A stretch of DNA of 59,143 nt, filler included, from Basidiobolus ranarum (Eukaryota), in NCBI GenBank assembly GCA_040143965.1. It is 8 parts of 8 records of this genome, joined end to end, with 100 filler letters (N's around TTAATTAATTAA, not from the genome) between each part and the next. Parts side by side here need not be neighbours in the genome. Positions count along the whole stretch, not along the records: positions 37,061 to 44,359 come from JASJQH010001145.1; 7 more parts are not named here. One strand, written 5' to 3'. Each line of letters starts with the position of its first letter. Position 1 is the first letter of the stretch. Below the pieces are notes generated by a model, which made no database searches, was not told the DNA's origin, and was given only the letters and a program-made list of their open reading frames with translations. The position numbers and the translations under genes were made by a program. Positions 2,121 through 51,857 of the stretch are shown here, in pieces.

Positions 2121-3101
2121 TTATATACAGAGGAAGTAAACTAGCCATACAAACAATAATGAAATTGGGAAGCCTATTACATTCGCGGATGAGCAGACTT
2201 GGTCTTCTATTTCCTGACCAGTAATAATGATCTGGTGACTTGGTAGATTTATTGGAGGACTAAGTCGGGTATTCCCAGACCTCAGCAGACTTTGAAAATC
2301 CTCTACACGATCGGCTAGACCGGGTAACACCGTGTCTGGATAACAACAAAGGATTCGTCGACGGATCCTCAGAAAACGGTCCAAATACTCCACCTCGGGG
2401 CCAATCAAGGGACCAGCCAATCGAATGATACTTCTTAAGCTGAACCCATCGTCCGTTTGGTATCCATGTTGAAAGACCGTATCAAAGAAGATCGCCTTAC
2501 CAAGATAGCTTTGAATACCCACTTCATTAGCTAGTTTGATGGCTGGCTCGAATACATGTATATCTAAAGCACGGTTCTGGGATTTTCGAAAGCTTGCTTG
2601 GCAGGAAACCCGACGCCAAACGTCACAGAAACCGTCGAAGTTACTGGGGTCTCCTTTGACCAAGTTACAATCGGTTTGATTACTAAAACGAAGTAAAGAG
2701 ATAAAATACTTTCCAAAGGGACTTCGTAGATGGTCTTTTTTATAGTCGGTTATCACGGATAATGCTGTACCAGTAGCAGTGGAAAATCCAGCAAAACCAC
2801 AAGTAAATCCTTTACCATCTTTGAGATTTTTACAAAATGAATAATCCAGTTTTGTATCTTGTGTCTCGAATGCATTAGTAATGGCGAGAATATTTTTACG
2901 AACTTCTGGTGGTACTGGGGTAAATGACCCGTTAAAGGGCAGAGGTGGTGTTAATACACATTCAGCAATGGGTTTTCTGTATGTGAAGAAGGCACAATTT
3001 TGAGGGGAGTTGGAGAATTGATCTTGACAGTATGGGAAAGATGCGGCGGTGACTGTCGCTATCAGCAGCAATATATGACTTACAGAAGTGTAAAACTTCA
3101 T
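2121..3101 (-). CDS. GH46-family chitosanase, signal peptide, probable GPI-anchor signal
   Basis: Motifs NAFETQ...Y...DGKGFTCGFAGFSTATG and AIFFDTVFQHG parallel GH46 (catalytic Glu and Asp, DGRGYT). Hydrophobic N-terminus; C-terminal SSA followed by a hydrophobic tail. Intronless. Confidence 0.8.
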   Translation of the reverse strand: MKFYTSVSHILLLIATVTAASFPYCQDQFSNSPQNCAFFTYRKPIAECVLTPPLPFNGSFTPVPPEVRKNILAITNAFETQDTKLDYSFCKNLKDGKGFTCGFAGFSTATGTALSVITDYKKDHLRSPFGKYFISLLRFSNQTDCNLVKGDPSNFDGFCDVWRRVSCQASFRKSQNRALDIHVFEPAIKLANEVGIQSYLGKAIFFDTVFQHGYQTDDGFSLRSIIRLAGPLIGPEVEYLDRFLRIRRRILCCYPDTVLPGLADRVEDFQSLLRSGNTRLSPPINLPSHQIIITGQEIEDQVCSSANVIGFPISLLFVWLVYFLCI

Positions 3102-3464
3102 GTCTAAGGTAAAGAAACTCTACGCTATCCTGAGGGTATATAGAATTAACCGCTACCTAGGCCAGTCTTTCCATGGCTTTTAGTCTAGATTCGGCGGCAT
3201 CTTTGTGAGTGTGATGCGATGTTATGTGGGGAAATAAGGTCGGTATATTCTCCATCTAATGCTTACAAAGGTTTTCTTTCCGTCAAATTTAGTCAGCCCC
3301 CGCCTCAAATATGTACTAAAGAATGCGTAACCCTGAATTAGTTATTTCTATAACCATACACTCTCTATACTAATGATCATAGTAAATAAATCTGGTGAAA
3401 AGCTATACATGTTTATTCTCTGCTGATACTTAAATTTATACGAATACATCCCTTCAAGGGTAAG

Positions 3465-7324: not shown

Positions 7325-7424
7325 NNNNNNNNNNNNNNNNNNNNNNNNNNNNNNNNNNNNNNNNNNNNTTAATTAATTAANNNNNNNNNNNNNNNNNNNN
7401 NNNNNNNNNNNNNNNNNNNNNNNN
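7325..7424. other. Artificial contig linker
   Basis: N44-TTAATTAATTAA-N44 (stops in all six frames), identical at all seven junctions. Confidence 0.98.
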
Positions 7425-13487: not shown

Positions 13488-14696
13488 TCAGCGTCTCATG
13501 TCAAATGTATATGTTCTGGGTTGATCCATCTCTGAGCCCTGCTCGTAATTCTTTCCTGCTGTTTCCACAAGTGCATCATCAGACAAGCCCTCGGCCTGAT
13601 AGGGAAATGGTAGCAAGATGTGTACCCGATGTAGTTTCTTGCAAGGCTGGAGCACATCCCTTAGGTATTGATCAGATAACTTCTCATCATCACTCAGGGT
13701 AATCTGACTTAACGTACGTTCGTAGGTGACGATGATAGTTAATACGTGACATATGTTTGGCCATCCGTCGACAGTCAGAATCTCAATTCTGTGCCCTCGA
13801 AGCCGCATAAATTCACTAAATTCATCAATAATCACCCTCTCCTGAGGACTTTCCAATGTCCCAGACCACCCGGCATCCAATTCCACAAGGTATGGGCAGA
13901 AATGAGTGATCTCTTTGAAGGCACCTTGCGGCACCGACAACTCTGATACATAGAGAACTCTTAATGAGTATCCATTTGTCTCCAGAATTTTCTTCAATCC
14001 AACATTACTCGTAGTCGTTTTTCTCAACGAGAGCTTCCTCAACCCATGACAGTGTGTTGCTATTATCATTGCCACTGAGTCGTCCACTTGGTCATTGCTG
14101 TCTAACTGAAGTGTTCGTAGTCCTCCGCCACAAGTTGAAAGAAGAGTTGAAAATGCGCTCAGTGAAGGAAGGCCTCCCTCGAGGCACTTAGATAAGTTCA
14201 AATGCTTCAAGTTTGAAGAAACACTCTGGCCTAGGAAAATCAGGGAAGCGTTCGTGATAGGGTATCCGGACAAATCTAGTGAGGTCAAGTGAGATCCATG
14301 GTTCTCCCATATCAGGTTGGTAATCGCTTCTGGTATCAAAGGTTTTCGATGGAATTTCAATTTTAACTCTGTCAGTTGACCCTCATATGCTCTAGCTATG
14401 TCATGGCATAGCTTTTCCACCGGCAGAGGTCGGTGGTTATCGAAATAGGTGAGTTCGATAGAAAGTGATTTCAACTGAGAGCAATGCTTCAGTAAACAGT
14501 CCATAAATGTTGGTGATGTCTTTACTAATGTGAGGCTCAGGTGCTCAAGTTTTGGTGTACGTGTCAATAGGGCCTCCACCAAATGGCTAGAGTAATATAT
14601 ACATTTTACAGTTAGCGACTTGATAACGGAGTATGGCCAACAGTCCGTTTCGCTTAAATGTATCTTCTTTAAAAAGAGCTTCGCGGGTGCCTTTGT
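13488..14696 (-). CDS. RNI-like leucine-rich-repeat protein (F-box/LRR type), 5'-incomplete
   Basis: Repeated LxxLxL units (LEHLSL, LKSLSI, LTSLDLS, LKHLNLS, LRTLQLD, LRKLSL). Frame stays open to 14696 with no upstream ATG before the contig end. Confidence 0.75.
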   Translation of the reverse strand, partial: TKAPAKLFLKKIHLSETDCWPYSVIKSLTVKCIYYSSHLVEALLTRTPKLEHLSLTLVKTSPTFMDCLLKHCSQLKSLSIELTYFDNHRPLPVEKLCHDIARAYEGQLTELKLKFHRKPLIPEAITNLIWENHGSHLTSLDLSGYPITNASLIFLGQSVSSNLKHLNLSKCLEGGLPSLSAFSTLLSTCGGGLRTLQLDSNDQVDDSVAMIIATHCHGLRKLSLRKTTTSNVGLKKILETNGYSLRVLYVSELSVPQGAFKEITHFCPYLVELDAGWSGTLESPQERVIIDEFSEFMRLRGHRIEILTVDGWPNICHVLTIIVTYERTLSQITLSDDEKLSDQYLRDVLQPCKKLHRVHILLPFPYQAEGLSDDALVETAGKNYEQGSEMDQPRTYTFDMRR

Positions 14697-14741: not shown

Positions 14742-14841
14742 NNNNNNNNNNNNNNNNNNNNNNNNNNNNNNNNNNNNNNNNNNNNTTAATTAATTAANNN
14801 NNNNNNNNNNNNNNNNNNNNNNNNNNNNNNNNNNNNNNNNN
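14742..14841. other. Artificial contig linker
   Basis: N44-TTAATTAATTAA-N44. Confidence 0.98.
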
Positions 14842-19218: not shown

Positions 19219-21156
19219 TCAAACAGACGGACTTAATTTGTTTTGTTTAAGATTTTCCTGAATCACAAATCGGAGCATGATTTCAGCACGAGAACGAATC
19301 CAACTGTCCTTATTCATTCCCTTCGCTACCTTGGCGATATCTTTAGCTTTTGCAAAAGCACGATTGGTATTATGCGTTTGCCAGTACCAACGAGTTAAGC
19401 TCCATTCAAGCGGAAAGTTTTCTTTCGAGTAGATAGAATCGCCATTTCTCCTTGCTCTAGTGCGATTGTCTAGAGTACGAACAACCACTTGAAACAATGG
19501 AAGAAAAGAATTCGTGATTAGTCGTAGACGAGCGGGTACTGATTCAGCAGGCCAATCAATTATTCCCGGTTCAGTATTAGACCCCTCTGATTCTGGAGCT
19601 GTCTCCTTTTCCTTCTTTTTGTCGGAACCAGAAGGAATTGGATACGGGTTACGGTTCCGAGTGAGCTTTTCATGTACGGCAAAGAAACCAACCAACGCTT
19701 CAAAAACCATCTTCAATTCATTTGTTGGAATATTATCGATATTTCCCTGAGCTTTTTCGAATATCTTATTGATAAAGCTTCGGAACAAAGTACTGGCATG
19801 CTCGTGATCTCCAATGTTGACTGAAACTCTGGCTTTCCAAAACCCTAGGGGATCATTTTCATTTTGCAATTGGAGCTTAAGTTTCTCACATAGCCAATCA
19901 ATTGCAGAAGGTTGTGTTTCGTTAATCTCTGGCATCTTCTTAGCTTTACCGTTATCCTTAGGATTTGTGCTAAAACCCCAGGGAAGCTTTCCATTTGCAC
20001 TCCACCAATAACGACCAAAGTCGTATACGTAAGCAGCAGCTTCTTCTTGGGTTCCTAACTCCACTACTAGCTTGGACTGCTCATTTCCCATGATTTCACC
20101 AATTAGTAATCTAGGAATAAATCTTTCTGGATCTCTTTGTAGAGCTTTGTTAAGCGCTCCAATAGTGATTTCGGAACTAGCACCATGAACATAGAATGAA
20201 GCCAAAACTTTAGTATATAGAAAATTAAAGAAGAGGTCATCTGTGACCAAGTCGTTTTTAACTCCAAGTTTTTTGTCAACGAATTTGAGACATTCTTTAT
20301 GCTCCTGTCTCTCCATTAAGATTTTTACTTTGAGGAATCTGGCACCATACTTATCCCCAGAGTCCGCATCAAGCAATTGATCAGCCGTCTCCAGAGCCTG
20401 CTTAGAGTACAGCAGTCTTTTTTTGCTATGCTCTGGGTGTTTCTGTGACAGCTTGAGGAGAACTTTGGTTTTGATATATAGACTTCTAAGGTATGGGCCG
20501 GCATAAATCCAGTTTCCAAATTTACCGTAATTCCTGTCCCAATGAGATTTTCCTTCAGGCTGTTCTTCCTCAGTTTTCCAGCCACGTAGGATTTCCTCCC
20601 CTTTTTTGCTAGCCTCTTCTAGAATTCTCAATTGTTCTTCAAGTTGATCGTCAGTTTTAGTAGTAGCCAAAAGTACTCTAGCATCCACCGATAAATCCGA
20701 TATCTTTAGTGCTTTTTTTGCACCATCGATGCGTTCTTGTTGAGTTGCCTTATGAAGCATATCGTAAACATATTCTTGAGCTTCAAAGTACTCTTTTGGT
20801 GGGTAGACAATGGAGACGTCCTTGGTTTTCTCCTTGTAAGCAGCATAGTTAGATTGCTCAACAGAGAAAACATCAGCCACCGGGCTTTGATTAGCCGCAT
20901 CCATGGAGAACACATCACTCCAGTAAACTGAATCTACGGTGGGATTGTGAACAGTTATTCTACAATTCCCAAGATATTCAATATAGCTTTGCTTGATCTG
21001 CTGAATGTTGTAGAACATACGGACTTGAACGGAGTTCTGTCGATTCAAGCTGCTGTAAAGCTTTCGCTGATCCTCACTAGTCTCCGGTCTATCGGCCGGA
21101 TTCTCAGCGGGCGGAAGTACGTTGGAGGACTTGTTGTTACGCTTTCCTCTAGGCAT
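19219..21156 (-). CDS. Intronless 645-aa helical-repeat (TPR/ST7-like) protein
   Basis: Long ORF with motifs EAQEYVYD...AKKALKIS..VDARVLLA, GPYLRSL, DSGDKYGARF, GTQEEAAAY and AIDWL. Confidence 0.65.
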   Translation of the reverse strand: MPRGKRNNKSSNVLPPAENPADRPETSEDQRKLYSSLNRQNSVQVRMFYNIQQIKQSYIEYLGNCRITVHNPTVDSVYWSDVFSMDAANQSPVADVFSVEQSNYAAYKEKTKDVSIVYPPKEYFEAQEYVYDMLHKATQQERIDGAKKALKISDLSVDARVLLATTKTDDQLEEQLRILEEASKKGEEILRGWKTEEEQPEGKSHWDRNYGKFGNWIYAGPYLRSLYIKTKVLLKLSQKHPEHSKKRLLYSKQALETADQLLDADSGDKYGARFLKVKILMERQEHKECLKFVDKKLGVKNDLVTDDLFFNFLYTKVLASFYVHGASSEITIGALNKALQRDPERFIPRLLIGEIMGNEQSKLVVELGTQEEAAAYVYDFGRYWWSANGKLPWGFSTNPKDNGKAKKMPEINETQPSAIDWLCEKLKLQLQNENDPLGFWKARVSVNIGDHEHASTLFRSFINKIFEKAQGNIDNIPTNELKMVFEALVGFFAVHEKLTRNRNPYPIPSGSDKKKEKETAPESEGSNTEPGIIDWPAESVPARLRLITNSFLPLFQVVVRTLDNRTRARRNGDSIYSKENFPLEWSLTRWYWQTHNTNRAFAKAKDIAKVAKGMNKDSWIRSRAEIMLRFVIQENLKQNKLSPSV

Positions 21157-22151
21157 GATGAGTGTATTACTAGAAAAGTTAATAGACCAAAGAGAAGATA
21201 GATTAGTCTAATAGTCCAAGAATCCCCCAAATTGTAGAAATTCAAGACGATGATAACGTCTCTACAACGTCAGAGCAAGGCACTCTTATATGTGGTTTAT
21301 CTATTCATCATCAATTCAGGGATTGGTTAGTTGACAGGTTAAAGGAGGGGAATTGAAGGGGTTTCTTGTGGAGAACCTAAGCTGGATATCAATTGGAATC
21401 CATAAAAAGCCCCTTAAAATCCCACTCCTCATTTAGTCGTTTCAATGAAGAGTCAACTAAATCATCATCAACACTTCTCCTTTTCGATTTCCAAATGCAT
21501 CACTTTTGTGTATCTACCAATAAAAATATGTTGGAGTAATTTTCAAAATACTTACTAAACTCTGTTGAAAACCGGCTTCTCTAAGAGAATTAAGTTGTCG
21601 TGCTATTCAGGGTACTTCAGATTTCGTAACGAAGACATCATGTGTGAGTGAATCATGAGCATTCTTCTTGTATATACATTCATTTAAACTAAACCAAATG
21701 AGGAAGCCCATAGGTTTGTGTTGTATACAGTGTGTCTGAGAGCCGTTGAGAACACGAGACAAACCATGTTCAACGTAATTAAGCCTCTAACCAATCGGCA
21801 GAAATATGGTGATTGTATTGGGCCTCAATCTAACACCTACAATAGCAATGGCGGTATTGTACTAGTGAGGTTTATCTTACCGATGAGCTCCTTGAGAATA
21901 AATCTCATATAGCTCTTCAATGCTATAGGATCGGCCCTTGGGAATCAGCGAGAGATCACAAAGACTGCAAAGTTCATTCAATCTCTTTGGCGTATGCACA
22001 GTAACCAACCATGAGTAGAGGCTGAAAGGTGTTGGCATTAAAATCCAGGGCACATGAGCCCCTTCCCCTTCCCCTCACCAGGCCAGCATGTGTGGGGTTT
22101 CGGTGGGCGAGAAGGGCGCCTGGATTGCTCTCAATCTGATCTGCCGGTCGT

Positions 22152-22251
22152 NNNNNNNNNNNNNNNNNNNNNNNNNNNNNNNNNNNNNNNNNNNNTTAAT
22201 TAATTAANNNNNNNNNNNNNNNNNNNNNNNNNNNNNNNNNNNNNNNNNNNN
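22152..22251. other. Artificial contig linker
   Basis: N44-TTAATTAATTAA-N44. Confidence 0.98.
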
Positions 22252-29557: not shown

Positions 29558-29657
29558 NNNNNNNNNNNNNNNNNNNNNNNNNNNNNNNNNNNNNNNNNNN
29601 NTTAATTAATTAANNNNNNNNNNNNNNNNNNNNNNNNNNNNNNNNNNNNNNNNNNNN
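29558..29657. other. Artificial contig linker
   Basis: N44-TTAATTAATTAA-N44. Confidence 0.98.
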
Positions 29658-36960: not shown

Positions 36961-37060
36961 NNNNNNNNNNNNNNNNNNNNNNNNNNNNNNNNNNNNNNNN
37001 NNNNTTAATTAATTAANNNNNNNNNNNNNNNNNNNNNNNNNNNNNNNNNNNNNNNNNNNN
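36961..37060. other. Artificial contig linker
   Basis: N44-TTAATTAATTAA-N44. Confidence 0.98.
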
Positions 37061-37070
37061 AGATCAGCTA

Positions 37071-37163
37071 TGCAGGTTGCTTTTCTATTTCCAAATTGAG
37101 TTCTTCAACTACTGTGGGTGAGACAATAGAGTTGGTAGATCCAGTATCCAAGGTTACACTATC
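37071..37163 (-). mobile_element. Retropepsin relic of a Ty3/gypsy-like element
   Basis: Translates DSVTLDTGSTNSIVSPTVVEELNLEIEKQPA*, matching the LDTG(S/A)...IS...L.L protease pattern. CpG-poor flank to about 37600. Confidence 0.6.
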
Positions 37164-38456
37164 GCTCATGACTGATTCATGATTTGAGTGTGGAATTTTA
37201 AAAGCGGTATATTTTTAGACTTGTTCATCATATTATTGCCATACTTGATATATCCACTTGTCAATATTTGAGCAATATATATATCAATATAAAGTGTTAC
37301 TATCTGAGTTAGAAACCATGCTACCTGCTTCAAAAGTTCATTGTAAAGCTAAATCAGTTTTGAGCACAATGATTTCGAAAATTATTTATTTACAATATTC
37401 TTGTTATTACCTCCTTTTAGCTTATAAATAGCTTGAAGATATCTAGGCATACTGTGTATCAAGGATTGACAATCTTCTTTAGGTATTCTATACTACTCAA
37501 TACTATTCTCTCTCCAAGCTTTCCAAATTCTTAGAATAGAATACTCACAAACCTTCTTTTAAGATAACTCCATATATAGATTTGTGAGTGTATGTGTTTC
37601 AAGCTAGACAAAATAAAAATCGGTGATTTCCATAATTTTCAAATTGCTTTATTCGTAAATATGCTTAATTAAGGTGGTACCCCACATTAATGACATGACC
37701 ACGAGTGGCTGATATAGAGGCAAATCTCGATTAAACCCGATCGTCACCTATTACCCATTAACATGCCTCCCGCAGGTAGAAACGATTGGGGTAACTATGG
37801 GGTAGGGGTAAATTGTACTTCAAAATGAAGAATCAACTCTAAGGGTTAGACTTTAAGGTGAGAAATCAACACGAAGAGTTAGGCTATACTTTCAGGTGAG
37901 AAATTGCACCTTTACTAACAAGTTAATAATCATGGGTCGTTGAAAGGCATCACCTAATATGGAGTTAATCCCTTACGTAGTGATTCAAACAAGAAAGTTA
38001 CCTTTAAGTTGGCGGATGATTAACTCTGGATGGTCAACACTCATGACGAATATGCGTTGAAAAGAAATTTATTTATTGGTTCTTCTCGGTCACACACACC
38101 AGATATATCACAAAATCTGAACTCCCGTATCTTTCTTCGATATCATAATGATCCGTGAAGCACTCATATTTATACGCTTATGCTTATAGTTGTATCTAGA
38201 GCTAAGCCATCAATCCCTATCATCTATTATTATTTGGCAGCTTGGAAAAGTGATCAGAGTGCTACTAACATGTAGCAGGCTTTAGAACTGGTTTTCGTTT
38301 AGGGAGCGTTTCCAAGAAGGGATGGAATATTCAATATGGTGATACTTGATGTGATTAGGGAGAGGCTCTATTTCGAGTATATAAGAAGCCAAGTAGTATG
38401 GATGGCCGAGAATCTCAACATACTCTCTAAAGCTAAAGTAGTATCTACATTTCAAG

Positions 38457-39704
38457 ATGCAATCAATGAATTCTGGGGACCTCTACAAGAAAGAGAAAAT
38501 CACTCGATCTGATGGTACGAAACCTCACGTTCTGATCATTGGAGGAGGTGTTTCCGGTCTAACTACTGCCTGGACCTTACGTAACGCTGGATGTAAAGTC
38601 ACTGTAGTTGCCGAACAGTATACCGAGCTTGGACCTCAGGACAAGGAAATCGTCTCGGAGATTGCTGGAGCTTTGTGGGAATGGCCACCAGCCGTATGCG
38701 GTTCTCACGGAAAAGACACAGATGAGCAATTAAAGAATTTAAAGAGGTGGTGCCAAATATCCTATATCCAATTCAAGGACATTGCTGATAAATATGGGGC
38801 TAATGATACTGGTATTCGCAAACGGATGTCATGCTTTTTATTCGAAAAAAAACTTGCTGATCAAGGATTGAAAAAGAAACAGGAGATTGCTAAGATTTGC
38901 GATGGCTTTAACAATGATGTACCAGGATTGATAAAGAAATATAACTTGAATTCAAACACAGATAAAAAAGGATTCAATATTGTGGACGCTTACGAGCATT
39001 TGTCATATGTTGTGGATCCCGAGCAATATCTTCACTGGCTAAAAGCATTGGTTGAGAAGAAGAACGTTGCTCTTCTCCACGGAGTCCTAGAAGATACTAT
39101 CCATGAAGAAACACCGTATTTGCTACAACGTTACAAAGCTGATATTCTCATCAACTGTACTGGTATGAGTTCTAGAGAACTATGTAGTGACCAGAGGATG
39201 AAACCACTACGTGGAATTCTTATTCATGCCAAGAATGACGGAAAAAAATTTAAGAAGATTGAAAGCTGTATTTCAATCTCTCAGCGTGATGCCGATCTAA
39301 ACGCCTCTGCCGAAGAGAAATTGAAGGCAGAAGAGGGAAGGTTTGAGTTTATTGTTCCAAGGAATGACGACATTCTTATCCTCGGAGGTTATGCTCAAAT
39401 GGGCAAAGAAAAGCACCATTGGAATGAAAAAAAACACAATTATCTTAAGAAGATGAAAGATGGCTGTGTCAACCTCTATCCGGAGTTGGAAAAGGCAGAA
39501 TTTACTGACTATTACCACCGCGTTGGCATTCGCCCCTTCCGTGATGAACCTCGTGTTGGTCAGGACGAGAAAGATCCTAGAATATTCCACAACTATGGTC
39601 ACGGAGGATCTGGCTATACCCTGTCATATGGATGTGCACTCGACATTCGTAAAGCCGTTAAAGCTCATTTTGAAAATGTAATCAGACCTCATAGCAATTT
39701 GTAA
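38457..39704 (+). CDS. D-amino-acid oxidase-like FAD oxidoreductase, copy 1
   Basis: IIGGGVSGLTTA, AGALWEWPPAVCG, INCTG, P.RG, GIRP and HNYGHGGSG. C-terminal SNL is PTS1-like. Confidence 0.9.
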   Translation: MQSMNSGDLYKKEKITRSDGTKPHVLIIGGGVSGLTTAWTLRNAGCKVTVVAEQYTELGPQDKEIVSEIAGALWEWPPAVCGSHGKDTDEQLKNLKRWCQISYIQFKDIADKYGANDTGIRKRMSCFLFEKKLADQGLKKKQEIAKICDGFNNDVPGLIKKYNLNSNTDKKGFNIVDAYEHLSYVVDPEQYLHWLKALVEKKNVALLHGVLEDTIHEETPYLLQRYKADILINCTGMSSRELCSDQRMKPLRGILIHAKNDGKKFKKIESCISISQRDADLNASAEEKLKAEEGRFEFIVPRNDDILILGGYAQMGKEKHHWNEKKHNYLKKMKDGCVNLYPELEKAEFTDYYHRVGIRPFRDEPRVGQDEKDPRIFHNYGHGGSGYTLSYGCALDIRKAVKAHFENVIRPHSNL

Positions 39705-40244
39705 CTACTGAGTTGTTTTTATTAAGTACATTTAAAATATTGCTGATGTTACAAGTAAACATACGTATTAAATTGAGTATCGTTGATGTTAACAAACGTA
39801 AATATTAAAGAAAATATTACCAAATTCAAATCACCCATAATACCATAAACTGGAATACTATGCACTTAGTGTACTAAAAGCGAATCTCATGCTCGGAAAA
39901 ACTAATCTAAGATCTAAATGATTTTCTAATGAGGAAATTGTAAAAGAAATGGATTTTTCACTAGTCACTCTATATTACACTAAGCTAAGCCATCCACCCG
40001 CACACGATCACTATTTGCGTAGCTCGGAAAGATGATCATAGCGTTAACAGGTTAGGTTACCGGCTTTAGTTTAGGGAGTAATATGTTGCGTACTACACAA
40101 TTGTACCATATGATGCTTACAAACTGGCTAACTGTTCAACTGCGAGATATATAAAGAGCTGTCTGTATCGACGGTAGCAATAACAACTCTCTTTCAACAC
40201 TCACTAAAGTTACCTGAGCTTTTCAGCCTATTTAACAATCAAAA

Positions 40245-41489
40245 ATGCCCCAAATGAACCCAGGAGACCTCTATTGCAAAGAAGCTATCTTACGCTCGGA
40301 TGGTAAGATACCCCACATTCTTATCATTGGAGGCGGTGTGTCTGGTCTCACTACTGCTTGGGCATTACGTAAATCAGGATGTAAAGTAACTGTTATCGCC
40401 AAGCAGTACGCGCCCACTCAACCAGGAAAAGAGAAGATCATTTCCGAAATGGCTGGTGGTCTATGGGAATGGGCACCCTCTGTCTATGGATCTAGTAAAG
40501 AGCATCTAAATGACTACGAAAACTATAAGCGTTGGTGTCAGCCATCTTACGTACAATTTGAGAAGCTCCATGGGAAATTTGGCGCAGATGTCACCGGTGT
40601 TCGCTCTCGTATGTCATGCTTCTTGTTTGACAAAAAAATCGAAAATATTGATGAATCTGCCAAGCTCAAGATGTTAGAAATCAAAGAGCATTGCGATGGA
40701 TTTTACCGCGGTGTAGAGCATCTTGTTGAAAAGTACCGTATTAATACCAACGAAGATAAGCTTTATAATTTCAAGGACGGTTATGAGTACTTCTCCTACG
40801 TAATTGATCCTAAAAAATACTTGAAATGGTTAAGGAAACATGTTCAGAAACAAGGTGTTCGACTTTTGAAATTCGAAGTTGTCGGAAATCTTCTGGAGGA
40901 AGAGGAGAATCTACTCGATATGTTCCAAGCTGACGTTATTGTTAATTGCTCTGGATTAGCGTCCATAGATCTATGCCAAGATAAGCAACTAATTCCGACC
41001 CGTAGCATTCTGCTACATGCCAAGAATGACGGTGTTAAATTCCCCATAATTAAGAGTTGTGTCTCTATCTACAAATATGACAATGGTATTAGCCCCAAGA
41101 GTGAAGCAAGCAAATGTGGTGATGATCGTTACATGTTCATGGTTCCACGCAATGATAAAGTAGTTGTTGTAGGTGGTGCTACCGAATTGCATAATGGTGA
41201 AGAGGCCCACAGTGCATCTGAGGCCACTGATATCATCCAAAAGCAAATCAAACGATTGTATCCACAGATGCAAAATGCTGAACTTCTAGACTACGACTAC
41301 CACATTGGAGTTCAAAAAAGCCGTAAACATCCTAGAGTTGGCCGCGATGAAGACAGCAATAAGATCTTCCACAACTACGGCCATGGATACTCCCGCTACA
41401 GCTTGTCATATGGATGTGCCCTTGATATCCGTAAGGCGATTCGAAAACACTTTGCTGAGTTTAAAGTTAAGAGTCATAGTCATTTATAA
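40245..41489 (+). CDS. D-amino-acid oxidase-like FAD oxidoreductase, copy 2 (divergent active site)
   Basis: Colinear paralog of copy 1: IIGGGVSGLTTA, AGGLWEW and HNYGHG. C-terminal SHL is PTS1-like. Confidence 0.88.
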   Translation: MPQMNPGDLYCKEAILRSDGKIPHILIIGGGVSGLTTAWALRKSGCKVTVIAKQYAPTQPGKEKIISEMAGGLWEWAPSVYGSSKEHLNDYENYKRWCQPSYVQFEKLHGKFGADVTGVRSRMSCFLFDKKIENIDESAKLKMLEIKEHCDGFYRGVEHLVEKYRINTNEDKLYNFKDGYEYFSYVIDPKKYLKWLRKHVQKQGVRLLKFEVVGNLLEEEENLLDMFQADVIVNCSGLASIDLCQDKQLIPTRSILLHAKNDGVKFPIIKSCVSIYKYDNGISPKSEASKCGDDRYMFMVPRNDKVVVVGGATELHNGEEAHSASEATDIIQKQIKRLYPQMQNAELLDYDYHIGVQKSRKHPRVGRDEDSNKIFHNYGHGYSRYSLSYGCALDIRKAIRKHFAEFKVKSHSHL

Positions 41490-41672
41490 ACCTGGCTTCA
41501 AATTACAACAGCTATCGAGATGGTTTAACTTTCAAAATAAACTCATTCTTGAAACAATATTATTGATGTTTATTTATTTGGCTTTAGTGTTCGAAAATAA
41601 AGAGCAAGTTTGAAGTATTATACATTTGCATATCAATTGAAATCTGCGGAGAATACTCCATGGTGTGGATGA

Positions 41673-42594
41673 TTATTCTCCTGAGATCTCCTCCAATGTT
41701 TTTCCTTTTGGCTCAGGAATCCAGAAATTACATAAGAATCCTAAAAACATGAAATCAGCGAAGATTCCTAATGTCTGAGGAAGAAAGGAAGGTTTGTAAC
41801 TCTTCAAGCTCCGTGCTTTTCTTAATGTTAGCATAACGAGGTGATTCAGGCATGGTAACTCTGAAATATACTGCAAATATAGCTGGGACACATCCAAATC
41901 CAAGCATCAGTCTCCATACATAATCAAGATTCTGTTGATCTTCACGAATAGCTTCTTGAAAAATAGCTAGGACGATCACAGTGAAAACTGCTGCTACCAA
42001 AATGCCGACTCCTTGTAAAGCAAAGACTGAAGCAATCATCATACCACGGCGATTTGTTGAAGCAAATTCGGATGTAATGACAGAAGAAACTGGGTAATCC
42101 CCACCAATTCCAATACCAAGAATAAAACGCCAGAAGCCGAGGATAGCAATGACATTGACGCCTTTGGCCCAGGAACCAGCTAAAGCGCAGCAAATGGAAG
42201 CAAAGATGACAATAATTAACTCCAAACCATACATCTTCTTCCTACCCAGTCTGTCACTGAGATACCCAAAAAGTAGTTGCCCTATTAGAGTACCAAAAGC
42301 AGCAGCACCTTTCAATGGACCTGTAAACTGCTTTGGCACCTGGTTGTTATTGTCCTGATAGTAAACATACCCTAGCATGGGCACCGCCAAGTTGATGATG
42401 AAGATATCGTAAGCATCTGTAAAGAAACCAACACCACAAATAAGGATGGCCCGAAGGTGCCATTTGGTAAGTTTAGTCTCGCTGATAGCAATGAGATTAT
42501 TGACAGTCATATTGGATTCTCGGTCGAATGTAGAGCTGAGGGTTTTGGTGTTTGCTACCACAATTCTATCCTTTATATCCTGCTGATGCCTCAT
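41673..42594 (-). pseudogene. Pho84-like phosphate:H+ symporter with internal deletion and frameshift
   Basis: N-half intact (GVGFFTDAYD, DRLGRKKMYG, GIGIGGDYP, PESPRY). It then jumps, out of frame near 41790, to the last TM segment LPQTLGIFADFMFLG...IPEPKGKTLEEIS*. Confidence 0.85.
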
Positions 42595-43440
42595 GTATGA
42601 ACTAAAATAGGACCATAGACTAGTAACCAATCGTTTAGTCAACCACACCAGATACCAATTCCATTGGAGGGAGGGGGATTAACTTAATACAGAGGAGACT
42701 ATGTTTCTTCTCAAGAAGTTATAATCTACAATCATGACCATTTCCCTAATATCTCAAGTAAACTGTATTGCTACTTGCGACAGCTCAGTTGATTTTGGAA
42801 TATCTGATGAGAAATGTTTAATTGGGTAAAGTGGCATGGACCAATCAATGCACTATTTGAAGCACGTTGCATAACACCTCCGTTCATTGTTTCTTTTTAT
42901 GCAACAACAAACCCGTGACCGTGATTTTTCATCCTTTATACATAGTAGTTACTTACCAAAGCTTAGATAGGTTTTTTTTGCACGCATAGTCAAAAAGCGA
43001 AATCCGATGATCTGGGCCAGATTTGACAGATTTGGATAATCTATGGCATGTGTTTGATCTACACTTCCACCCTATTGGTACATTGGGTTATTTTCAAAGT
43101 CAGTGTAGTAGTTTTGCCCTGAATATATCCATATCAAGCGCAAAGAACTGCCATGATAGTTATAGAAAACACTCGGGAAACACGTGGGGAACACTCACGA
43201 TTAGAGAAGCATTCCTAGGATTACAGTTTGATCATAGTAAGCACAGCTCACTGAATTGTCTCTAACTCAAGCTAATCGATAACATCTTTAGAATTATGAA
43301 TCGTTAATTATGTATTAATTATTAAACAAATTGTGTAATTCATTTCTCTAACTCATCAGGTTCTTTTGAGAGTATATGCTTAACAAACTTTTCTATCCGT
43401 AAGCTAAAAAAAAGGTCAATTCACTTTTTCTCTTCTCTCT

Positions 43441-44359
43441 TTGGAACTACCTCTAAAGATTATAGCAGTCAAAAGCTCAATCGCTGGTGATGGGTGGAAG
43501 TTACAATATATTTCACAACTTATGTCACGTGTAGCTAACGTTCATACCCTTATGTCACATATGTTTTCCTTTTTGTAGTACATCTTTACTCATGAACTGG
43601 AACATAATTCTGAGCTTCTTTCGGAATATTTCATTAATATTGACTTTTTTAAAGAAGTCTTTGTGTCACTCCTCAATAACTACAAGCCAAGCAAACAGAA
43701 AGCTTCGACAGAATCAAGAGCCTATAAAGATTTAATACTCAAGTATCGGGATAAGTACTTTCAGTGCTGCTCTTACGAACCAGTCAACATGAAGTATGCT
43801 CATCAGATAGCTTCTTATGAAGTGGTAAAAATTGCCATTGCTTATCGCAAGGGGGCCAAACTTCAATTCGGAAATAAAGTTAGAATGTTTCTTAACTTGC
43901 TCTTGAAGAAGAACGAAAGAATCAAGGCACTGGAAAGCAAAATGAAGAATGAAAGAAGCGAGAAAGATATTAGGGCAGCCATAAAGACGATAACAGAGCT
44001 TATAAAGAAGGTCAAGCTTGCTATTTCGTCAAGAAATATCGAAGATATGTCTAAAGAATTTCTCTCCTCAGATGATTTGGATAGGATCCATAGTTTTTTG
44101 GCTTGCATTTGACAGACTATCAATTTGCAAAAGACTCAATCTATTGCGACTGCAAAAGCAACCCTCTCAAGCATATAAAGGCGTATTCCAGACTGTCAAG
44201 CTTCCGTTACGAAGGGGCTTCAGACCATCCTACATGCCAATTGATACGTATATTTTAAATAATCAAATCTTGGAGAATTCTATCACCAGCCACTTGGATA
44301 AAGAAGTAGTATGGGGAACTGTTATTGGCCTTACATCAAAGGCAATGAAATCACAAAGA
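43441..44359 (+). mobile_element. Degenerate Fanzor1 (TnpB-derived RNA-guided nuclease) ORF, N-terminal half, truncated by the contig end
   Basis: Stitched translation: IIAVKSSIAGDGWK...VHTLMSHMFSFL*YIF...FFKEVFVSLL...YKDLILKYRDKYFQCCSYEPVNMKYAHQIASYE...FGNKVRMFLN...; frameshift; DYQFAKDSIYCDCKSNPLKHIKAYSRL; frameshift; PLRRGFRPSYMPIDTYILNNQIL...DKEVVWGTVIGLTSKAMKSQR. Motif order matches fungal Fanzor1 proteins as I recall them. Confidence 0.8.
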
Positions 44360-44459
44360 NNNNNNNNNNNNNNNNNNNNNNNNNNNNNNNNNNNNNNNNN
44401 NNNTTAATTAATTAANNNNNNNNNNNNNNNNNNNNNNNNNNNNNNNNNNNNNNNNNNNN
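44360..44459. other. Artificial contig linker
   Basis: N44-TTAATTAATTAA-N44. Confidence 0.98.
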
Positions 44460-51757: not shown

Positions 51758-51857
51758 NNNNNNNNNNNNNNNNNNNNNNNNNNNNNNNNNNNNNNNNNNN
51801 NTTAATTAATTAANNNNNNNNNNNNNNNNNNNNNNNNNNNNNNNNNNNNNNNNNNNN
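51758..51857. other. Artificial contig linker
   Basis: N44-TTAATTAATTAA-N44. Confidence 0.98.

Follow-up and report, generated by a model that had tools for sequence, protein, structure and literature searches.

A broken, contig-truncated Fanzor1 gene copy in Basidiobolus ranarum and its close relatives in Rhizopus

Fanzor1 proteins have been known since 2013 from Rhizopus, Mucor, Phycomyces, Spizellomyces and Allomyces, among other organisms (Bao and Jurka 2013, PMC3627910), and their activity as RNA-guided nucleases was demonstrated in 2023 (Saito et al. 2023, PMC10432273). The former paper reports that Rhizopus oryzae has four Fanzor1 families, of which ROr-4 has MuDR-like terminal inverted repeats and 9-bp target-site duplications (PMC3627910), and the latter calls Fz1 "highly spread in fungi", with 42 loci in S. 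punctatus, 19 of them full length (PMC10432273). The same source presents TnpB, from the IS200/IS605 and IS607 elements, as the ancestral form, an RNA-guided RuvC nuclease whose domains (WED, REC, RuvC and zinc finger) come in the same order, and describes the REC lobe as the part before RuvC, in which WED and REC read the target-adjacent motif (TAM) and hold the guide-target heteroduplex (PMC10432273). Here we examine a 59,143-nt stretch of DNA from Basidiobolus ranarum (the window), in which a single coding relic, distributed over three reading frames at 43441-44359 (+), corresponds to about the first 44% of a Fanzor1 protein. We are highly confident that this relic is a dead, assembly-truncated copy of a Fanzor1 gene in a B. 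ranarum-like genome.

The described protein with the best fold match to the relic is PpFz1 of Parasitella parasitica (PDB 9cf0-9cf3; Xu et al. 2024, PMC11423790), in which the conserved blocks follow one another in the same order as in the relic, through KAxKSQ. PpFz1 is intact and active as an omegaRNA-guided nuclease and has, besides RuvC, a TNB zinc finger and a RuvC insertion domain, whereas the relic stops before RuvC. In addition, the aligned part of the PpFz1 chain is preceded by ~130 N-terminal residues that have no counterpart in the relic. The closest full-length relatives are Fanzor1-type proteins of Rhizopus arrhizus and R. delemar (e.g. P0003, 577 aa), which bear DPGRRD, DEFRTS-CPSC and WNRD and whose hosts belong to Mucoromycota, in contrast to the Basidiobolus-like host of the relic. 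These P0003-type proteins are probably among the ROr Fanzor1 families of Bao and Jurka 2013 (PMC3627910). SpuFz1 of Spizellomyces (8gkh; PMC10432273) has the same fold, and its PLRR...IDT.IL...W..V.NL..KAF block aligns with the relic, yet it is distant (17-18% identity in the fold alignment) and has features of its own, which that paper gives as a 5'-CATA TAM, an omegaRNA of ~90 nt and conserved inverted-repeat ends. With TnpB the relic shares no detectable profile similarity, and the enlarged REC region is specific to Fanzor1.

The three frames emerge from tblastn searches of the window with three relatives, P0001, P0002 (713 aa) and P0003. P0001 found a single locus in the whole 59-kb window, with a joint E-value of 6.8e-105 (a within-window value), its residues 1-222 aligning to 43441-44103 in frame 1, residues 220-254 to 44094-44198 in frame 3 and residues 267-319 to 44198-44356 in frame 2. 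The other two queries returned the same three pieces, which span residues 38-354 of P0002. A first-pass annotation of this DNA had described a 0.9-kb relic split over three frames, with a TAG at 43576-43578 and frameshifts near 44110 and 44200; the alignments bear out these coordinates, the TAG is present and in frame, and both frameshifts can be assigned to losses of DNA, as listed here:

43441-43575 (+): segment 1a, frame 1, the first 45 codons with detectable Fanzor1 homology (tblastn, P0001 1-222)
43576-43578 (+): in-frame TAG, where the relatives P0001, P0002 and P0201 have K
43579-44100 (+): segment 1b, frame 1, helical REC-type region (9cf0 match, AlphaFold2 model, Foldseek)
44094-44099 (+): T-run lacking 1 nt, where frame 1 passes into frame 3 (compared with P0201, IHSLFGLYLTDY, and with P0003; tblastn frame switch)
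44103-44198 (+): segment 2, LHLTDYQFAKDSIYCDCKSNPLKHIKAYSRLS, frame 3 (tblastn, P0001 220-254 and P0003 104-140; translation)
about 44199-44206 (+): junction with a net 37-nt loss, frame 3 to frame 2 (compared with P0208 and P0003; tblastn gap in P0003 from 140 to 152)
44201-44359 (+): segment 3, LPLRRGFRPSYMPIDTYILNNQIL...KAMKSQR, frame 2, to the contig's last base (9cf0, E 1.2e-6; tblastn)

At 43441 a TTG stands at the position of the ATG start of P0001 and of P0201, the latter a further B. ranarum protein. The surroundings of the TAG read ...AFLK[YF]IF... in P0001, P0002 and P0201, and the homology is ungapped on both sides, so the TAG is a nonsense change and not an intron. Within the T-run the window has AGT, five T and then GGC where relatives have S-[LF]-F-G, and after the loss of one nucleotide the old frame hits a TGA at 44110-44112, which is the frameshift that had been placed near 44110. 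At the third lesion, P0208 (also from B. ranarum) and P0003 keep the 14 residues SMCEALQNK.FNCF, flanked by ...RLS and PLR..., in place of which 5 nt stand in the window; about 12-14 codons of these two proteins are gone at the junction. No intact open reading frame (ORF) is left, and the copy in the window is unable to encode a working protein, because it lacks the start position, has an in-frame stop, changes frame by 1 nt and has lost another 37 nt, and because its contig breaks off ahead of the nuclease lobe.

For database searches we used as a query the 177-aa open frame at 43579-44109; the public annotation has, at 43789-44109 within segment 1b, a 107-aa ORF (P0202) that is 100% identical to it. 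Among 5.8 billion proteins the 177-aa piece had eleven longer relatives, with E-values from 3.5e-60 to 9.5e-12, and those of 415-713 aa matched it at 3.5e-60 to 2.5e-35. An exhaustive HMMER scan gave 120 representatives with E-value <= 0.001, 41 of them at <= 1e-10 and three at <= 1e-30. By these sequence statistics chance similarity is excluded, because both the best E-value, in a database of that size, and the number of representatives speak against it. Among proteins of known structure, 43579-44109 matched Parasitella parasitica Fanzor 1 (9cf0) with an E-value of 2.4e-24 and 44201-44359 matched the same entry with 1.2e-6, in agreement with the assignment to Fanzor1 that the first-pass annotation had proposed. 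That annotation had also given a SpuFz1 block (IPLRRSLIQSHVRIDTIILYQHIL...EKDDLW..V.NL..KAFRS) as the parallel of the relic's end, and this is exactly where 44201-44359 aligns to 8gkh (chain residues 658-710), albeit with an E-value of 1.8, which alone is not significant. The upstream blocks that it named (YIF, FFxEVFxSL, QIAxYE, FGN and SIYxD..P..H.KA) can be seen in the alignments to the relatives and to 9cf0.

The relatives themselves are clearly of this kind. Full-length P0002 matches PpFz1 at 9.5e-158, SpuFz1 at 7e-50 and GtFz1 at 4.2e-4, and both P0002 and P0003 bear the RuvC and zinc-finger motifs DPGRRD, DEF[KR]TS followed by CPxC, and WNRD, the zinc-finger motifs being CPTC and CTSC in P0002 and CPSC in P0003. 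In Pfam, P0002 has a weak match to Cas12f1-like_TNB (PF07282; E-value 0.0011, 19.5 bits, below the cutoff of 26.3), and a search with six relatives gave only this weak TNB match and an unrelated S24e fusion. The relatives also carry PF26935 as a precomputed label, which is absent from the local Pfam copy. The S24e fusion is P0008 (Rhizopus arrhizus, 561 aa), in which a Fanzor1 part is joined to the N-terminus of ribosomal S24e (PF01282, E-value 2e-11, residues 510-549); the two were probably fused in the gene model, across an element that is truncated.

Structure prediction agrees with the sequence comparisons. Modelled with AlphaFold2 from a 27-row alignment, the 177-aa piece is confidently predicted to be all-helical, with a mean predicted local distance difference test score (pLDDT) of 87.4, and its fold agrees with the REC lobe of Fanzor1, which has an enlarged helical REC between WED segments. 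When this model was compared with the PDB by Foldseek, Fanzor1 chains filled ranks 1-6 of the 284 matches with E-value <= 10, led by 9cf0 (E-value 3.9e-8, TMq 0.65, 34% identity) and including the SpuFz1 structure 8gkh (E-value 0.044, probability 1.00), with which a fold comparison had been suggested; from rank 7 onward all E-values were >= 1. The Fanzor1 assignment is thus firm, by sequence and by fold.

The downstream half of the gene is lacking in the window, which is made of eight separate contigs, of size falling from ~7.32 to 7.29 kb, with seven identical artificial spacers between them. Each spacer consists of 44 N, TTAATTAATTAA and another 44 N, at intervals of ~7.4 kb (7325-7424, 14742-14841, 22152-22251, 29558-29657, 36961-37060, 44360-44459 and 51758-51857), and is not a sized scaffold gap; features or gene order that cross a spacer are not real. 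Two of these units concern the relic directly:

37061-44359 (no strand): the relic's contig, 7299 bp, with two tandem DAO-family genes and an MFS/Sugar_tr transporter gene; the database proteins P0135 and P0202, assigned to a contig of this length, are the window's own
44360-44459 (no strand): artificial spacer between unrelated contigs (N-run map)

The relic reaches the last base of its contig, and the next piece opens with the C-terminus of PCNA, which is unrelated to it. A contig end within a multi-copy element is a typical product of short-read assemblers. Aligned to P0003, the relic ends at residue 203, with TDGV following at 217 (14 residues on) and DPGRRD at 272 (69 on), so the break does lie just before these motifs, as the first-pass annotation had it; the contig end is real, but the DNA that follows it in the window is not adjacent in the genome. 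A repeat scan found no inverted repeats within 42600-44359 (the element's right end lies beyond the contig); its matches were three short direct repeats, each in two copies and seemingly fortuitous. A blastn search of the window with 42679-44359 returned the region itself and one 21-nt chance match, and the window has no second copy that would mark the 5' boundary.

Outside the window, five further B. ranarum proteins belong to the relic's family, which agrees with the earlier suggestion that this genome has a Fanzor family of its own: P0201 (247 aa, 78% identity), P0012 (110 aa, 88%), P0204 (112 aa), P0208 (165 aa) and P0217 (204 aa, with an internal loss). All five are fragments, of 110-247 aa compared with 577-713 aa in full relatives, and their end points differ. 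P0217 continues into TDGVGVS...DPGRRDLLYC, so that the first RuvC motif is present in a fragment from the same species; extension into a DDE transposase or a host domain, which would have spoken against Fanzor1, is not what this longer copy shows. The first-pass annotation had also thought intact copies possible. Among annotated B. ranarum proteins no relative longer than 310 aa was found by a word-index search for longer proteins, which can miss relatives. On weak evidence from sequence, this points to a decayed family in B. ranarum. The public annotation of these loci gives hypothetical proteins only, and no full-text paper was found to mention Fanzor together with Basidiobolus, although supplementary tables of the 2023 surveys may list such hits; the family thus appears to be unannotated in the genus.

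If this reading is right, an ancestral DNA transposon would have carried Fanzor1, a eukaryotic TnpB-type, omegaRNA-guided RuvC endonuclease. Going by established work on the family and not by the window, its omegaRNA would have come from the 3' end of the element, and the protein would have read a short TAM via WED and REC and cut DNA with RuvC; the region that the relic keeps, upstream of RuvC-I, corresponds to what forms the REC lobe (WED and REC) in solved Fanzor1 structures. The family has at least six diverged fragments in B. ranarum, on this reading the remnants of a past burst of the Fanzor1-bearing element.

Several observations weigh against a dead Fanzor1 copy, or at least against parts of this reading. 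None of the four relic pieces matched a family in the local Pfam-A at E-value <= 1, including the TnpB/OrfB profiles PF01385, PF07282 and PF12323; the RuvC D-E-D residues, the C4 zinc finger and the omegaRNA region would lie beyond the contig end, membership being established via the N-terminal half only; the 1-nt loss sits in a homopolymer and is possibly a sequencing error; and the statement that there is no intact copy refers to annotated proteins found via shared words only. One may accordingly consider that the gene is in fact alive, its stop and frame changes being mistakes of sequencing or assembly, or introns that went unrecognised, and its remainder being hidden by the contig end. The assembly is indeed highly fragmented, with contigs of ~7.3 kb, one of the breaks lies within a T-run, and fungal Fanzor genes can have introns, multi-exon prediction being part of the Methods of Bao and Jurka (PMC3627910). 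Yet the TAG stands at a conserved K codon, and the homology runs on directly to its left and right, so there is no intron at that place, and the 37-nt loss removes residues that P0208 keeps, DNA absent from the genome being unable to form an intron. There are, moreover, three independent lesions in addition to the lost start position, and five out of five other B. ranarum fragments are short as well. We consider a live gene very unlikely.

Contamination from the Mucorales (a Rhizopus-like fungus), or a chimera formed where the contig ends, would explain why the closest full-length relatives come from R. arrhizus and R. delemar, with P0003 74.6% identical over 189 columns. However, the relic lies 760 bp from Basidiobolus-type genes on the same contig, the second oxidoreductase there being 93% identical to B. 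ranarum K7432_012821 with the next relatives in B. ranarum and B. meristosporus, and its G+C content (0.34-0.38) falls within the range of the contig (0.31-0.43). A contaminant would also be expected inside Rhizopus and near-identical to its sequences, whereas the six B. ranarum copies form a clade of their own, apart from Rhizopus; this explanation is to our minds extremely unlikely. The same can be said of domestication, in which the P0202 ORF (43789-44109) or the REC-like piece would have been retained by the host to bind nucleic acids in a new role. A 177-codon open frame does survive, and the public annotation has a protein there, but the open stretch ends at lesions and not at conserved ends, the copies of the same species are broken at different places, as fits neutral decay, and no conserved short form exists among 18 matches of 97-310 aa. 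A dead, truncated Fanzor1 copy remains by far the best explanation.

The origin of the family is a separate matter. We computed a maximum-likelihood tree over the relic's columns (40 rows, 328 columns kept), the rows being the relic (with X at its three breaks), five B. ranarum, 16 Rhizopus, three other Mucorales, three other Zoopagomycota and 12 further sequences. The six Basidiobolus rows form one clade (support 97/87), which lies inside a clade (99/98) with the R. arrhizus/delemar copies and three further rows, in a tree in which eight of the 40 rows fill under half of the columns, long branches join at the base and the root is placed at the midpoint. Outside the 99/98 clade are R. microsporus, Thamnidium, Mucor, R. 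stolonifer, the Parasitella cluster and a second R. arrhizus lineage, and the Coemansia and Syncephalis rows are distant. Identities follow the same pattern: Basidiobolus copies are 69-88% identical to one another and 64-85% identical to members of the R. arrhizus/delemar clade, and the relic, besides its 74.6% to P0003, is 62.5% identical to R. microsporus, 44% to Thamnidium, 33% to Syncephalis and 26-28% to Coemansia, so that the Zoopagomycota other than Basidiobolus reach 26-33% only. An approximately unbiased (AU) test rejected a grouping of Basidiobolus with other Zoopagomycota against the named Mucorales (difference in log-likelihood 61.4, p 1.7e-9), under a constraint that left Backusella free and with a group chosen after the tree was seen; in the unrooted tree the Basidiobolus clade is in any case split from all other rows.

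The lineages of Basidiobolus and Rhizopus belong to different phyla, which split hundreds of millions of years ago. Vertical descent is hard to reconcile with this picture, because identity across hosts equals identity within the genome, in copies that are decaying. On these uncalibrated identities, the chances appear to us evenly balanced that the Basidiobolus Fanzor1 family was gained by a cross-phylum horizontal transfer of a transposon from Rhizopus-like Mucorales and then amplified and decayed; ancient paralogy followed by differential loss could also produce such a tree. Basidiobolus has been noted before for the uptake of foreign genes. Of seven full-text papers that combine Fanzor with horizontal transfer and fungi, none, judged by titles and the openings of abstracts, is on a fungus-to-fungus transfer; three papers mention Fanzor together with Rhizopus.

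No close viral copy that might have served as a transfer vector was found among 23 viral-contig loci, whose identity to the Rhizopus protein P0003 was 26-29%. A scan of metagenome contigs with a three-protein alignment gave 588 pattern matches and no confirmed relative, and the ESM Atlas gave no usable match. The viral loci (L001-L023) are of some interest in themselves, since their products are nearly complete Fanzor1-type proteins that span residues 7-545 or 114-545 of P0003. Most of the loci are on giant-virus-type contigs (several of them in giant-virus metagenome-assembled genome, GVMAG, bins), in keeping with earlier knowledge that giant viruses carry Fanzor1.

Some other loci of the window deserve mention. 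The two tandem genes upstream of the relic, at 38442-39704 (+) and 40236-41489 (+), encode DAO-family FAD-dependent oxidoreductases with 49% mutual identity, and many more such paralogues exist in B. ranarum, at 47-93% identity. Their nearest named relatives outside Basidiobolus are from a liverwort (35%) and from cyanobacteria (33%), no other fungi having appeared, and they could be an expanded family of foreign origin. On another contig, an ORF at 2121-3119 (-) has a Glyco_hydro_46 (chitosanase) domain (E-value 1.1e-28). This family is mostly bacterial, and the ORF may be another transferred gene. Long open frames at 19219-21207 (-), of 662 codons, and at 13488-14696 (-), of 402 codons, had no Pfam match at E-value <= 1e-5.

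The relic itself is of little weight, since the family has been known since 2013 and incomplete copies are frequent. More notable is that a decaying element in another phylum is so similar to Rhizopus copies, which makes it a candidate for a fungus-to-fungus transposon transfer. Should the full assembly contain an intact copy, this would bring a new omegaRNA and a new TAM, probably close to those of the Rhizopus elements.

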